A program made the translations under genes and the position numbers. From Chlamydiota bacterium (GTDB lineage: Bacteria; Auribacterota; JACPWU01), in NCBI GenBank assembly GCA_016196885.1, contig JACPWU010000040.1, positions 1 to 6,558 of the forward strand: a DNA stretch of 6,558 nt. The letters are read 5' to 3'. Shown in pieces: positions 349-6,368 of this stretch. Positions within the stretch are counted from its first letter, which is position 1, and every line of letters starts with the position of its first letter. The notes beneath the pieces were generated by a model. That model was given only the letters and a program-made list of their open reading frames with translations, searched no databases and had not been told where the DNA came from.

Positions 349-678
349 TCAAGGGCCTACAATATCCAACAATCCTTCAATGATGCGATTAACCTCTTCC
401 TCTCCTAGATTTGAGAGTTTTTGGCCGAGGCGCTTGACGGAAAGGGTTCGGATTTGCCCAATTTTAACCCAAGAAGGTTTTGGCAATTGCTTTTCTTCTA
501 ATTCGTAGGTAAGGGGAAAAGGAATTTTTTGAGGTTGACTGGTAATGGCTAAAACAATCACAAGCTCTGAGCGACTGTTAAACATCTCGTTACTGATGAT
601 GAGTACAGGTCGGTGTCCTGCTTGTTCTCTACCCCTGGTGGGCTCAAGATCTGCCCAATAAATGTCTCCTCTTAGCAT
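349..678 (-). CDS. mazF: PemK/MazF-family type II toxin (sequence-specific endoribonuclease)
   Basis: The 109-aa ORF begins MLRGDIYWADLEPTRGREQAGHRPVLIISN... and continues ...PSWVKIGQIRTLSVKRL, which is the typical PemK/MazF N-terminal and core pattern and size. It has an ATG start at 678-676. Confidence 0.9.
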   Translation of the reverse strand: MLRGDIYWADLEPTRGREQAGHRPVLIISNEMFNSRSELVIVLAITSQPQKIPFPLTYELEEKQLPKPSWVKIGQIRTLSVKRLGQKLSNLGEEEVNRIIEGLLDIVGP

Positions 679-2337: not shown

Positions 2338-3423
2338 GTGAAAAACTTCAAAGGGGGTTTTTTTCTTTTTTATTATTTTTGGTTGCTGATTTTCCTCTTT
2401 ATTTCCCTCCATGATGCCTACCCGATTTCCTTTCGTCTTTATGATGAAGGGGCCAAGGCCCAAGGCCAAGCAGGCGCCTTTACGGCTCAAGCGGATGATG
2501 CCTCTGCGCTTTATTATAATCCAGCCGCGATCACGCAATTGAAGGGGGATCAGGTTTTGTCGGGGACGGAATTTCTCCTTTTGAGTACGGATTATACGAG
2601 TACGAGTGGGGTCGAAGAATCGGACACCAATGATTGGGCGATTGTTCCTCATTTTTATGCGGTGCATCACGTGAATAAGAAGTGGGCGGTGGGCTTTGGG
2701 ACCTATTCTCTTTTTGGTTTGGCGACAGAGTATAGCGACACGGGTGTTTTTCGATATGTCGCGACCAGCTCGGAGTTGAGAACGATGACGATCAGTCCGG
2801 CGATCGCGTATCAAATCCTGCCGCAACTTTCCTTTTCAGCGGGGCCTACATTTATCGTGGGGACTTTGGATTTGAGGAGCAAAGTAGATTTTGGGGCGTT
2901 GGCGGGTTTATCCGGTGCTCTGGATGGGGACTCAAGATTAGCGGGGGATGGAGAGGGGTTTGGATTTCAGGTCAGTTTGCTTTTCGAACCCCATCCACAG
3001 CATCGGTTGGGACTGATGTTCTTGAGCCCTGTGGATTTTGATGTGGATGGCAGTGCCACGGTGTCCAATATTCCCTCCTTTGTGGGGGTTGGTTCTACGG
3101 TGACGGGCGATTTTTCGAGTGAATTAGATTTACCGGCGGTTTTGAGATTTGGCTATGCCTTTTTTCCGACCCATCGCTGGAAAATTGAATTTGATCTGGA
3201 TGGGTCGAATTTTAGTACATTCGAGGATCTTCCCATCACCAGCACCAATCCTTTGGTGGGTTCCCAGAGCGTTCCCAAAAATTATCAAGATGGGTATGTC
3301 TTTGCCTTGGGGACGGAGTATGAATTGAATGAGGATTGGACGGTGCGTTTGGGGTATGGGTATATAAACCTGTCTCTCGCATTCTCTTCTCTGTCCTTGG
3401 GTAAAAACTCCCTCTGGGAATGA
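2338..3423 (+). CDS. FadL/OmpP1/TodX-family outer-membrane hydrophobic-compound transport protein, apparently C-terminally truncated
   Basis: A GTG start is preceded by AAGGGGGG. The N-terminus is a hydrophobic signal-like segment. The family signature AKAQGQAGAFTAQADDASALYYNPAAITQL is present, followed by beta-strand-like alternating pattern. The ORF ends ...WTVRLGYGYINLSLAFSSLSLGKNSLWE*, lacking the last strands and the C-terminal aromatic residue, and its final ~55 nt are repeat-derived. Confidence 0.8.
   Translation: MKNFKGGFFLFYYFWLLIFLFISLHDAYPISFRLYDEGAKAQGQAGAFTAQADDASALYYNPAAITQLKGDQVLSGTEFLLLSTDYTSTSGVEESDTNDWAIVPHFYAVHHVNKKWAVGFGTYSLFGLATEYSDTGVFRYVATSSELRTMTISPAIAYQILPQLSFSAGPTFIVGTLDLRSKVDFGALAGLSGALDGDSRLAGDGEGFGFQVSLLFEPHPQHRLGLMFLSPVDFDVDGSATVSNIPSFVGVGSTVTGDFSSELDLPAVLRFGYAFFPTHRWKIEFDLDGSNFSTFEDLPITSTNPLVGSQSVPKNYQDGYVFALGTEYELNEDWTVRLGYGYINLSLAFSSLSLGKNSLWE
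3369..3403 (+). repeat. fragment of the C-element tail embedded in the 3' end of the FadL-like ORF
   Basis: There is a 15-nt exact match TCTCTGTCCTTGGGT (3389-3403 = 296-310). The upstream flank is also similar (GTCTC..CATTCTCT versus GTCTC..CATTTTCTA). Confidence 0.55.
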
Positions 3424-4342: not shown

Positions 4343-4384
4343 AATTATTTATGATATAAATTATTCTTGTTGTAAAGTATAATA

Positions 4385-4687
4385 CCTCGCATGGCCTCGG
4401 TCGTGCAACCTTCCCTCCAAAGCGGACTCGGACGCTCTCGCAGTGGAAATTTGATGAGAGATGTGGGTTAACCCGAATAGGTGAGATTTTGATTCAACCC
4501 ATATTTTGCAATAGACGCGAGAACTCAAGAGCAAGAGCTTGAGCCAGACAGGCCTTTGCAGTCCCTGTGGGATTGGCCTGAAGAAAACGTAGGCATACTG
4601 TTCACCAGTATGTCGAGGCTTTCTGAAGGTCAAGATGGCCAAGATGTTGCGTCGAATTCCGCGGCCTATTGCAAATTCTGGGTTCAA
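4385..4687 (+). repeat. C-element copy 2: inverted module A (4385-4459) + structured M/B domain (4493-4687); candidate ncRNA in the tRNA-Thr leader
   Basis: 4493-4645 is identical to 5344-5496 apart from 2 substitutions. The long-range complementary arms CAACCCATATTTTGCAATAGACGCG (4495-4519) and CGCGGCCTATTGCAAATTCTGGGTT (4660-4684) close a ~190-nt domain. That domain contains hairpins CTCAAG..CTTGAG, CAGGCC..GGCCTG (inner TCCC-TGT-GGGA) and CATACTG-TTCAC-CAGTATG. Confidence 0.75.
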
Positions 4688-4706
4688 TAGGGAGTTTTGC
4701 GACGAC

Positions 4707-4778
4707 GCTGGCGTAGCTCAACGGTAGAGCACCTGATTTGTAATCAGGCGGTTGCGGGTTCAAATCCCATCGCCAGCT
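4707..4778 (+). tRNA. tRNA-Thr (anticodon UGU), no encoded CCA
   Basis: Manual cloverleaf: acceptor GCTGGCG/CGCCAGC, D arm GCTC-AACGGTA-GAGC, anticodon arm CCTGA-TTTGTAA-TCAGG, T arm GCGGG-TTCAAAT-CCCAT, discriminator T. The T arm has one C-A mismatch and one G-T pair. Confidence 0.9.
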
Positions 4779-4993
4779 AAAATGTCCATGTTTGATGGTT
4801 GCAAAGGAAGTTCAAGGAACTTCTTTTGAGGGCATCAAGAAGGATTTGAACAGGAGGCCCGACCTAATATTAGCCAATCTGCCGGTGGCAGATTGGCTAG
4901 TCCTTGAGAGGGCCGGGAGGCTACCGGAAGACGAGGCCTCGAGGCCGAGTCTGGAGGAGCCAAATCCCATCGCCAGCTAAAATGTCCATGTTT
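4761..4993 (+). mobile_element. T-loop-associated mini-element 1: ~167-nt insert bounded by 33-bp direct repeats of the tRNA-Thr(UGU) 3' part
   Basis: CAAATCCCATCGCCAGCTAAAATGTCCATGTTT occurs at 4761-4793 and again at 4961-4993, exactly 200 bp apart. The repeat starts at T-loop C56. A conserved 109-nt core (4852-4960) contains a perfect 13-bp hairpin, 4871-4883 paired with 4887-4899. Confidence 0.6.
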
Positions 4994-5016
4994 AAATAAG
5001 CAGGTTGCTGAGATTT

Positions 5017-5126
5017 AATTTCAATGGCCCTTTTGGGGGGCATCGTGTGCAATGAAAGCTCCACCCGCCTCCCTTATTTTGTAGTCGCCCCATTTATGGG
5101 GCTGCCCGATGAATCGGGCGACTACA
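5017..5126. repeat. REP-like element copy 3 (core 5080-5126, inverted) with conserved upstream flank
   Basis: The core is the exact reverse complement of 57-103 and 2113-2159. The flank 5017-5079 is in the same orientation as 2052-2112. Confidence 0.8.
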
Positions 5127-5218: not shown

Positions 5219-5247
5219 TTGCCAGATTCTTTATTTTTTTGTATAGT
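5219..5247 (+). promoter_or_regulatory. sigma70-type promoter candidate for the C-element / tRNA-Tyr-Gly-Thr-tuf transcript
   Basis: TTGCCA, a 17-nt spacer, then TATAGT (5/6 match in each hexamer). It is preceded by an A/T-rich tract (AGGAAAAAAATAATTTTTTC). Confidence 0.5.
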
Positions 5248-5343: not shown

Positions 5344-5562
5344 TTCAACCCATATTTTGCAATAGACGCGAGAACTCAAGAGCAAGAGCTTGAGCCAGAC
5401 AGGCCTTTGCAGTCCCTGTGGGATTGGCCTGAAGAAAACGTAGACATACTGTTTACCAGTATGTCGAGGCTTTCTGAAGGTCAAGATGGCCAAGATCTCA
5501 AGCTGTTATAGTCCCTGTGGGATGCGTCGAATTCCGCGGCCTGTTGCAAATTCTGGGTTCAA
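5344..5562 (+). repeat. C-element copy 3 (M/B domain only, with 26-nt internal insertion)
   Basis: It matches 4493-4687. CTCAAGCTGTTATAGTCCCTGTGGGA (5497-5522) replaces the GT at 4646-4647. The insertion repeats AGTCCCTGTGGGA from 5411-5423. Confidence 0.75.
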
Positions 5563-5691
5563 GGTTGGAGCAGATTCTCCCATCAATTTTTTCAGGGTTT
5601 TTTCGCTTCCAGGACCTTTATTCAATAAGTTAGGTATTTTAAGGTTTTGTCTGACCCTTTTTTTCTGATGTTGAGTCAGGAAGTTGAGCTA

Positions 5692-5773
5692 GGGCAGGTA
5701 CCAAAGTGGCCAACTGGGCCAGACTGTAAATCTGGTGGCTATGCCTTCGAAGGTTCGAATCCTTCCCTGCCCA
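5692..5773 (+). tRNA. tRNA-Tyr (anticodon GUA), long variable arm, no encoded CCA
   Basis: Acceptor GGGCAGG/CCTGCCC, anticodon arm CCAGA-CTGTAAA-TCTGG, T arm GAAGG-TTCGAAT-CCTTC. The layout parallels E. coli tRNA-Tyr. Confidence 0.93.
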
Positions 5774-5777
5774 AAAA

Positions 5778-5874
5778 GCAGGGTGTAGGGGTTAGGGTGT
5801 AGGGTATAGGGAAATAATGATTTTAATTAAGAACATTATTCCCTACACCCTAACCCCTACACCCTATTCCCTAC
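5778..5874. repeat. G-tract heptad palindrome 1 (long inverted repeat in the tRNA-Tyr/tRNA-Gly spacer)
   Basis: The left arm AGGGTGTAGGGGTTAGGGTGTAGGG (5780-5804) is perfectly complementary to 5841-5865. AATAATG (5813-5819) pairs with CATTATT (5834-5840). The loop is AT-rich and contains TTAATTAA. Confidence 0.85.
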
Positions 5875-5952: not shown

Positions 5953-5973
5953 CAAGGCAGAGCTTATATAAAA

Positions 5974-6080
5974 GCAGGGTGTAGGGGTTAGGGTGTAGGG
6001 TATGGGGAAATAATGAAAATAATGATTTTAATTAAGAACATTATTCCCTGCACCCTAACCCCTACACCCTATACCCTGCA
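5974..6080. repeat. G-tract heptad palindrome 2 (tRNA-Gly/tRNA-Thr spacer)
   Basis: The same 25-nt left arm (5976-6000) pairs with 6046-6070 with a single mismatch. A 9-nt tandem duplication (AAAATAATG) is present relative to copy 1. Confidence 0.85.
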
Positions 6081-6086
6081 TTTATA

Positions 6087-6159: not shown

Positions 6160-6368
6160 CGTGATGAAAAGCTTAAAGGAATTAGTAAATTTAAGTCGGG
6201 TTCAGGTCTATAAGGTTTATGCAAGGGAATCGAATAGGAGGCCCGACTTATATTAGCAAATCATGCAGTGCATGATTTGCAATTCCTTAAGAGGGCCGGG
6301 TGGCCGACCGGAAGACGAGGCCTCAAGGCCGAGTCTGTAGGCGCCGATTCCCGTTCTCGGCTCGTGAT
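6142..6368 (+). mobile_element. T-loop-associated mini-element 2: ~179-nt insert bounded by 24-bp direct repeats of the tRNA-Thr(GGU) 3' part
   Basis: CGATTCCCGTTCTCGGCTCGTGAT occurs at 6142-6165 and again at 6345-6368. The repeat again starts at T-loop C56. The 109-nt core (6236-6344) is homologous to 4852-4960, with an 11-bp hairpin 6256-6266 paired with 6270-6280. Confidence 0.6.

Follow-up and report, generated by a model that had tools for sequence, protein, structure and literature searches.

Two segments of a 6,558-nucleotide (nt) stretch from a Chlamydiota bacterium (contig JACPWU010000040.1 of assembly GCA_016196885.1, hereafter the window), at positions 4493–4687 and 5344–5562, are probably (at a probability of roughly 0.78) two recently duplicated copies of a non-coding, non-autonomous MITE (miniature inverted-repeat transposable element) from an undescribed family. 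We refer to these copies as E1 and E2, and regard the element as a new family of a known kind rather than a new class of RNA. It is small and non-coding (185–209 nt), has terminal inverted repeats and a target duplication of fixed length, occurs as dispersed copies, and is polymorphic for presence and absence, which was observed at the fadB-upstream site of relatives; the TTCAA on either side of E1 and E2 could itself belong to the inverted repeat. Of the candidate roles proposed by an initial annotation of this DNA, a non-autonomous mobile element is the one borne out by the findings described below, namely several copies, inverted repeats at the ends, 5-bp duplications on the flanks, and orthologous sites that lack the element.

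Copy E1 (4498–4682, + strand, 185 nt, CCCATATT...ATTCTGGG) was delimited by repeat search, fold, a covariance model (R1) and blastn. It is bounded by ~22-nt terminal inverted repeats (CCCATATTTTGCAATAG... / ...CTATTGCAAATTCTGGG), identified by inverted-repeat search and folding, which form the 5' half (4498–4519, + strand) and 3' half (4660–4682, + strand) of a closing helix. TTCAA stands on both sides, at 4493–4497 (read directly) and at 4683–4687 (read directly and in the flank-repeat test). The left TTCAA is a putative 5-bp target-site duplication or the outermost bases of the inverted repeat, the former being backed by the 5-bp end repeats of relatives and by their empty sites. The long-range closing helix of the initial annotation was confirmed, as arms 4492–4514 and 4666–4688 are 87% complementary over 23 nt and pair in the minimum-free-energy fold (6 bp, a 3-nt loop, 10 bp, then onward inward); the terminal arms of the relatives described below are likewise complementary. 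This fold is mainly a rod with the closing helix, one side hairpin (4559–4575) and an apical hairpin (4592–4614), where at least three enclosed hairpins had been suggested previously; a third local hairpin (4524–4543) is possible and is unused in the fold. Folding energy for 4493–4687 was −80.4 kcal/mol (z = −6.1, with none of 200 shuffles equally stable). The minus strand of the unit reached −78.6 kcal/mol (z = −6.6) and the whole unit is 64% self-reverse-complementary, implying a palindromic DNA element rather than a strand-specific fold. Within E1 lie a nested 24-nt mini-hairpin module (4550–4573, + strand, AGGCCTTTGCAGTCCCTGTGGGAT), found by direct-repeat search and missing from another copy in the same metagenome-assembled genome (MAG), and an apical core (4575–4631, + strand) common to relatives in Acidobacteriota, consisting of UGAAGAAAACG, the hairpin at 4592–4614, GUCGAGGCUUUCUGAA and a tandem G.A motif. 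Logan unitigs from three samples stop 40 nt inside E1, behavior that is expected at a repeat.

Copy E2 (5349–5557, + strand, 209 nt) was identified by repeat search, fold and model R1 (core at 5426–5482, E = 6e-7), and is likewise flanked by TTCAA, read directly at 5344–5348 and 5558–5562. As reported earlier, this copy is nearly identical to E1 (98–99%), but the two differ by more than the two substitutions first counted: there are four (4593 G>A, 4603 C>T, 4647 T>A and 4668 A>G) together with a 24-nt insertion in E2. Three of the four preserve the structure, changing a stem G-U pair to A-U (4593), falling in the apical loop (4603), or changing a closing-helix A-U pair to G-U (4668); the fourth, 4647 T>A, adjoins the indel. 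The extra 24 nt in the right arm of E2 (5497–5522, boundaries approximate, + strand; an 80% direct repeat, also seen in the fold) hold both CTCAAGCT, whose pairing partner in the left arm is AGCTTGAG, and the mini-hairpin for a second time (AGTCCCTGTGGGAT). We considered whether E2 is nested in the arms of an older copy, given that its flanks (TTCTGATGGAT and GCAGATTCTCCCATCAA) recall a shorter, 162-nt type found in relatives, but an unfiltered model search gave no support.

Further copies are present in the same MAG. A truncated, diverged copy (copy A, 217–309, + strand) comprises the apical hairpin and right arm, is 78% identical to 4591–4653, ends in ...CTCTGTCCTTGGG, and has had its left half replaced; the right arm matches, in reverse complement, the left arm of the element at metagenome locus L020 (77% over 88 nt, E = 8e-14). 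Another diverged copy was seen as a spurious open reading frame (ORF; P0001, MBI1882749.1), and is the one that lacks the mini-hairpin 4550–4573, reading ELEPD-WPEEN with eight codons absent. A possible solo right-end fragment (TCTCGCATTCTCTTCTCTGTCCTTGGG, 3375–3401, + strand), located just past the stop codon of an outer-membrane-protein gene, has its terminal 14 nt identical to 296–309, although a 14-mer repeat in 6.5 kb is within chance by our own estimate and the fragment is only a lead. The total for this MAG is thus four copies or fragments, possibly five.

The unit does not begin at position 4385, as was initially proposed, since 4385–4492 belongs to a fragment of a different repeat (repeat M, 4382–4459, + strand, starting CCTCGCATGG) that is not part of E1 and has an inverted copy at 148–222 (− strand, repeat search). 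The two are 73% reverse-complementary over 78 nt (96% over 23 nt), and no further homolog of repeat M was found by blastn among the related loci compared. The start of repeat M, CCTCGCATGG, is a terminus resembling that of the MITE, and the repeat holds a CGTC-tagged hairpin (160–186). One of its copies abuts truncated copy A and the other lies just upstream of E1. A PemK/MazF toxin gene (349–678, minus strand) has the truncated MITE copy and repeat M just downstream of it; no antitoxin ORF of at least 40 amino acids was present upstream of this gene on the same strand.

Relatives were first sought with a motif common to E1 and truncated copy A, which gave 13 genome-contig matches (approximately the chance expectation for 18 bases, by our own estimate), 7 of them clear homologs of 162 nt. 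These ~162-nt relatives occupy seven loci in MAGs of Acidobacteriota (Thermoanaerobaculia and Holophagae), JAIOSJ01 having at least three copies and CBDTUG01 two. Seven more loci (L017–L023, where L017 duplicates L004) came from scanning metagenomes, six with 162-nt relatives; contig L020 carries a 233-nt copy of the architecture seen in the window, and L022 is an arms-only mini-copy. Searching for further copies through spurious ORFs gave a single window-type match (P0001) and five matches of the 162-nt type. One of the latter led to L027, a 21-kb locus where the arms are kept and the tandem G.A is replaced by C-G/G-C pairs; it was found separately from the database patterns, all of which required the core sequence. 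Model R1, built only from 162-nt elements, matches E1 on the + strand at 4575–4631 (E = 4e-7), and blastn of E1 against L007 and L009 aligned 94–110 nt (E = 2e-10 to 1e-8), reaching the right terminus. The E1-type and 162-nt elements therefore share a 57-nt apical core, much of the right arm, and the termini.

The family is apparently undescribed. Rfam 15 scans returned only tRNAs, with no match to the element at E ≤ 1 for the window and the seven related loci, or at E ≤ 10 for 4370–5000 alone (631 nt), in agreement with the earlier view that RNase P, 6S, SRP, tmRNA, T-box and riboswitch signatures could not be recognized. Families without a match included 6S, SRP, tmRNA, RNase P, T-box, riboswitches, ribozymes and HEARO, along with Acido-1 and Acido-Lenti-1, two established Rfam families (PMC2864571). 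Nor was there a blastn match to E1 among PLSDB plasmids or INPHARED phages, an occurrence of the element motif in a pattern scan of viral contigs, or a mention of the core sequence or of the assembly accession in full-text literature searches.

Evidence for mobility came from the element flanks and, decisively, from orthologous sites with and without the element. With ends set at the homologous CC...GG termini, flanks were direct repeats at all five positions in L009 (TAGAT) and in both E1 and E2 (TTCAA), and matched at four of five positions in four further copies. Overall, half of the independent copies (6/12) reached a match of at least 4/5, compared with 8% of mismatched controls (permutation p ~0.002). 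A fadB-like gene lies 24 nt downstream of the element in L008 and L010, and the site upstream of this gene is occupied in L008, L010 and L034 (the L034 protein being 94% identical to the L010 query). Occupied sites read ...TCAAA[161 nt]TTAAATATCAATGGG, or in element notation ...TCAAA[element]TTAAATATC, with TCAAA/TTAAA as the duplication pair. The same site is empty in L029, L035 (protein 91%) and L030 (88%), where the alignment opens a clean gap covering 161 nt and one 5-mer and the sequence reads ...CGAAATATCAATGGG (CGAAACACAATGGG in L029), also given as ...CGAAATATC, with a single 5-mer (CGAAA). L031 (87%) and L032 (84%) also have no element upstream of the fadB-like gene, as judged by reading and model scanning rather than alignment. 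The MAGs of L030 and L031 carry the element elsewhere (L013 in one; L007, L009 and L012 in the other), and in L035 a separate insertion lies ~245 nt upstream of the fadB-like gene. The element is thus dispersed and present or absent at orthologous sites, that is, mobile. Decay and nesting typical of mobile repeats were also seen, including truncated copy A, the arms-only L022, and small modules in E1, E2, L012, L019 and L023.

One such module is a second small repeat inserting into the first. It is GC-rich, 70–200 nt long, and nested in L012 (2720–2790), L019 (1105–1260) and L023 (1–56), sitting at two different right-arm positions in these three Acidobacteriota copies, and it occurs solo in L010 (5346–5402). 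The module consists of several short hairpins with CGAAG-type loops (e.g., CAUCCGAAGGAUG) and covarying stems.

From the AT-rich 5-bp duplications, a DDE-type transposase that cuts with a 5-bp stagger and acts in trans would have moved the copies. Element ends (CCTAAGAT... / ...ATCTTAGG and ...AATTTAGG) follow the pattern CC(T/C)A...T(A/G)GG, with CCTAAG, CCCAAA and CCCATA among the termini and TAGAT, TTCAA and TCAAA among the duplications. In the IS1380 family, ends in general begin with CC and duplications are AT-rich and 4–5 bp long. ISEcp1 has the left inverted repeat CCTAGATTCTACGT, and its insertions produce 5-bp, AT-rich direct repeats, for instance TAATA and TAAGA (PMC6061673). The ends CCTAAGAT... 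/ ...AATTTAGG start in a similar way (CCTA), and the duplications TAGAT, TTCAA and TCAAA/TTAAA are likewise AT-rich and 5 bp long, but the element has no transposase gene and the similarity is limited to the outermost 4–8 bases. Judged on these termini, kinship with IS1380 is a lead rather than membership.

Comparison with other small bacterial repeats places the element among MITEs without matching a described family. ERIC and Correia elements are 100–200 nt, non-coding and intergenic, with terminal inverted repeats and internal-insertion variants, are often found near gene starts, and reportedly duplicate TA at their targets; ERIC is an imperfect palindrome over its whole length and folds as an RNA hairpin when co-transcribed. 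The element shares with both its small size, non-coding nature, dispersed intergenic position, terminal inverted repeats, insertion variants and frequent closeness to gene starts, and with ERIC the full-length palindrome and its hairpin fold. However, its sequence is unrelated, its hosts are a Chlamydiota-labeled MAG and Acidobacteriota, its duplications are 5-bp and AT-rich rather than TA, and its 162-nt branch shows a very strong G-U strand asymmetry. ERIC (also IRU) and Correia (also NEMIS) repeats have been reviewed as bacterial MITE-like intergenic repeats (PMC2229807, PMC3184786). The BOX repeats of Streptococcus pneumoniae (PMC3049150) are similarly small, modular and transcribed, with outer modules pairing as a stem around variable inner modules, but are unrelated in sequence and host and have defined A, B and C modules, whereas the element has nested hairpin insertions in a rod.

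We assessed pairing and substitution patterns across the family. Eleven 162-nt elements share a rod of 64 pairs with 97.2% of cells paired, and 18 of these pairs have changed on both sides; none of 500 shuffles did as well, and pairing dropped to ~40% in slid-alignment controls. Neither an Rfam match nor a lack of compensatory substitutions was observed, outcomes that the initial annotation had named (the second jointly with the absence of a stable transcript) as counting against its reading. Cells in the 162-nt relatives are far more often G-U than A-C (69 vs 3), and every 162-nt element is ~25 kcal/mol more stable on one (top) strand, which together imply that one strand is constrained as a single strand. 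By homology, this strand would correspond to the + strand of the window, which is the tRNA strand. The three orthologous copies (L008, L010 and L034) are 95.7–97.6% identical to one another, compared with 88.5% for the upstream flank and 90.8% for coding sequence, and their 10 variable sites comprise six unpaired positions, three changes from A-U to G-U and one that breaks a pair. Sense-strand structure is thus under purifying selection after insertion at the fadB-upstream locus. Evolution slower than the flanks, with pairing kept, suggests that the transcribed hairpin matters, and in the relatives it probably acts as a 5' stem-loop affecting transcript fate rather than as inert DNA. A coding explanation was rejected: several frames are open on both strands, but apical loops of 5, 6 and 9 nt include lengths that are not multiples of three, so that indels shift the frame, and the changes compensate for pairing.

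A further proposal, which we regard as tentative and rather unlikely, is that the transcribed strand is a conserved, protein-binding rod RNA, kept across two phylum-level lineages and defined by the tandem G.A pairs and purine-rich internal loop of the apical core. Such an exapted hairpin RNA would act in cis as a 5' stem-loop that determines how stable the mRNA or tRNA precursor downstream is or how it is processed, or alternatively would regulate the element's own, unseen transposase.

Several observations weigh against the interpretation of E1 and E2 as copies of a DDE-mobilized MITE. The empty-site comparison concerns the fadB site of relatives, and no empty counterpart is available for the insertion sites of E1 and E2. 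Both copies carry the same TTCAA; had they inserted independently, this would not be expected, except with a specific target, with bases that are part of the inverted repeat (TTCAA and TTGAA being one base apart), or with E2 having been copied from E1 along with the flanks. The related loci yielded neither an autonomous element nor a transposase whose ends match, where the only transposases were an unrelated IS3-type pair in L018, and the link to IS1380 consists of 4–8 terminal bases and the duplication length. A parent insertion sequence was also sought on plasmids, where blastn of the 47-nt end sequence gave chance matches only. A DDE mechanism acting on double-stranded DNA leaves the marked strand asymmetry of the relatives without an explanation of its own, and the window-type copies (E1, E2 and L020) do not show this asymmetry. 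Finally, the near-invariance of the core is partly ascertainment because the database patterns required it.

Much of the pairing evidence would also suit a genuine family of structured non-coding RNA genes (a small RNA in several copies, or a 5' element acting in cis) in which mobility is secondary or absent. The covarying rod (18/64 pairs compensatory, 97% of cells paired, 0/500 shuffles as good), the G-U excess and top-strand stability, the slow, pair-preserving evolution of orthologous copies and the core conserved between the Chlamydiota-labeled MAG and Acidobacteriota are all in keeping with such genes, as are the orientation of the constrained strand, sense to the downstream gene at about 10 of 13 loci, and the several copies that end 19–25 nt before a start codon or tRNA. 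We nevertheless consider this explanation improbable. Close relatives have clean empty sites with a single 5-mer and an independent insertion nearby, flanking direct repeats accompany the copies, and truncated and arms-only forms exist. Three loci are antisense to both neighbors, neighboring genes are mutually unrelated, no terminator follows the element, and no Rfam family matches. Compensatory changes are also common in the hairpins of REPINs, mobile repeats built from repetitive extragenic palindromic (REP) sequences (PMC3116915), so covariation neither contradicts mobility nor separates an RNA gene from a mobile hairpin. Two specific RNA candidates were also rejected. 6S RNA, for which genomes usually have one or two genes, forms a rod whose large central bubble resembles an open promoter; here, the consensus internal loops are only 1–3 nt across 64 bp, there is no central bubble, and genomes have three or more copies. 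A hammerhead had been suggested by two features, CUGAUGAG/UUGAUGAG in the upstream fragment M and GACGAG...CGAGUC in the tRNA-linked inserts, but neither the order of helices nor the GAAA element fits, and Rfam gave no ribozyme match.

Movement as single-stranded DNA through an HUH-type enzyme (REPIN or IS200/IS605-like) would account for a strand-specific hairpin with G-T-tolerant pairing and compensatory changes, all of which are REPIN traits. GTAG-tagged double hairpins (57–103, 2113–2159 and 5080–5126) and the CGTC-tagged hairpin (160–186) in the window imply that such systems may exist in this genome. However, neither IS200/IS605 nor REPIN-type movement is known to make the 5-bp target duplications that were observed here against an empty site. 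The most conserved parts of the element are not terminal REP heads, its CC...GG ends carry no GTAG or CGTC tag, and no gene for TnpA or a REP-associated tyrosine transposase (RAYT) was seen in the loci examined; this route consequently appears quite improbable. REPINs and the element resemble each other as long hairpins with compensatory changes that form conserved, persistent families with singlet or truncated remnants, but REPINs consist of two inverted REP heads, are linked to RAYTs, and are thought to move single-stranded without target duplication (Bertels & Rainey 2011, PMC3116915).

A dedicated tRNA-operon leader or processing signal, or an omega-RNA or bridge-RNA guide left over from a lost transposon, was suggested by the genomic context of the window copies and is, in our view, very improbable. 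Each copy has a tRNA gene downstream and is on the coding strand. tRNA-Thr(UGU) (4707–4778, + strand) begins 19 nt past the right flanking repeat of E1, close to the ~20 nt first given, and tRNA-Tyr(GUA) (5692–5773, + strand) lies 129 nt downstream of that of E2. A perfect TATAAT precedes E1 (4376–4381) and TTGCCA-17-TATAGT precedes E2 (5219–5247). The promoter proposed before E2 can accordingly be recognized as promoter-like, although the number of such matches in the region is within shuffled expectation. Only one of about 12 related loci (L013) is near tRNAs; elsewhere, relatives are upstream of the unrelated genes fadB, pyrD, thrS and a kinase gene or antisense inside operons, so a role as a novel tRNA-operon leader or processing RNA could not be upheld for the family, about which as a whole there is nothing tRNA-specific. 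The guide RNA idea fared no better, given that no TnpB, IscB or IS110 gene figures among the Pfam domains listed for the source contig (14 kb) or for L027 (21 kb), no Rfam family matches, no segment varies with the flank as a guide would, and the element limits coincide with inverted repeats rather than a transposon end. Because E1 and E2 are oriented in the direction of the tRNAs, they would be transcribed into the tRNA precursors as the family's constrained strand and then removed with the 5' leader during tRNA 5'-end processing.

Other tRNA-linked inserts and repeats occur in the window. Two homologous ~170–180-nt inserts (4779–4993 and 6161–6368) directly follow tRNA-Thr(UGU) and tRNA-Thr(GGU) and are bounded by a direct repeat of the last 18–19 nt of the host tRNA (from the T-loop) plus 5–15 nt downstream. 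Inside each, at a matching position, 10 nt from the T-loop region of its own host recur in inverted form (GGATTTGAAC vs GGGAATCGAA), with predicted pairing to the duplicated part of the tRNA; each also has one covarying hairpin and one invariant hairpin with tandem G.A. They have no ORF and no Rfam match, resemble very small elements, integrative or guide-bearing, that target tRNA genes, and are possibly more unusual than the MITE itself. The GTAG...CTAC double hairpin is a 47-nt repeat (TGTAGTCGCCCGATTCATCGGGCAGCCCCATAAATGGGGCGACTACA) at the three positions given above and at 11696–11762 of a longer contig (L001), occurring in either orientation; this REP/REPIN-like repeat is also a point where Logan unitigs break. 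Directly after tRNA-Tyr and tRNA-Gly are long, near-perfect hairpins (5775–5870 and 5970–6085) with 29-nt arms that are 93–97% complementary, made of G-rich heptads (GGGTGTA, GGGGTTA, GGGTGTA, GGGTATA) around an AT-rich loop. These are telomere-repeat-like and could be processing or terminator hairpins. A 15-nt motif, TTAT(A/T)(C/G)AAT(A/T)AGTTA, recurs in three intergenic regions (34–48, 844–858 and 5618–5632, the last between E2 and tRNA-Tyr) and may be a regulatory or promoter-associated site.

The window was compared with L001, the 14-kb contig JACOUD010000013.1 of assembly GCA_016178005.1 (labeled "MAG: Chlamydiae bacterium" by NCBI), and was identical except for 238 nt (L001 4235–4472) that are absent at 3365. 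The 3' end of a FadL-type porin gene lies in them, and their absence truncates the FadL/Toluene_X porin gene in the window. Among Logan contigs at this site, two span it, L033 in full and L025 with a 244-nt head, and L026 starts within the segment. Given the presence of the segment in the NCBI contig and in the two spanning Logan contigs, the window appears to have been edited relative to the natural sequence at this point, which has no bearing on the hairpin element. A search for strain variants of the window locus through the Nudix protein cluster yielded none, the match proving to be the same genome.

Recognizing this family averts a misannotation, in that this strongly folding, covarying, Rfam-negative 200-nt domain beside a tRNA has the look of a new RNA gene but is a mobile repeat. 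The family is common to a Chlamydiota-labeled groundwater MAG and to MAGs of Thermoanaerobaculia and Holophagae, and its ends, which can be sought as CC(T/C)AAG...CTT(A/G)GG or CCCATATTTTGC...GCAAATTCTGGG, are a handle for finding the mobilizing insertion sequence. It provides a clear case of a MITE hairpin under strand-specific purifying selection after insertion, and a usable system for the role of transcribed MITE hairpins, whether as 5' stabilizers, RNase III sites or a means of transposase control, while its insertions mark recent genome change in uncultivated lineages.

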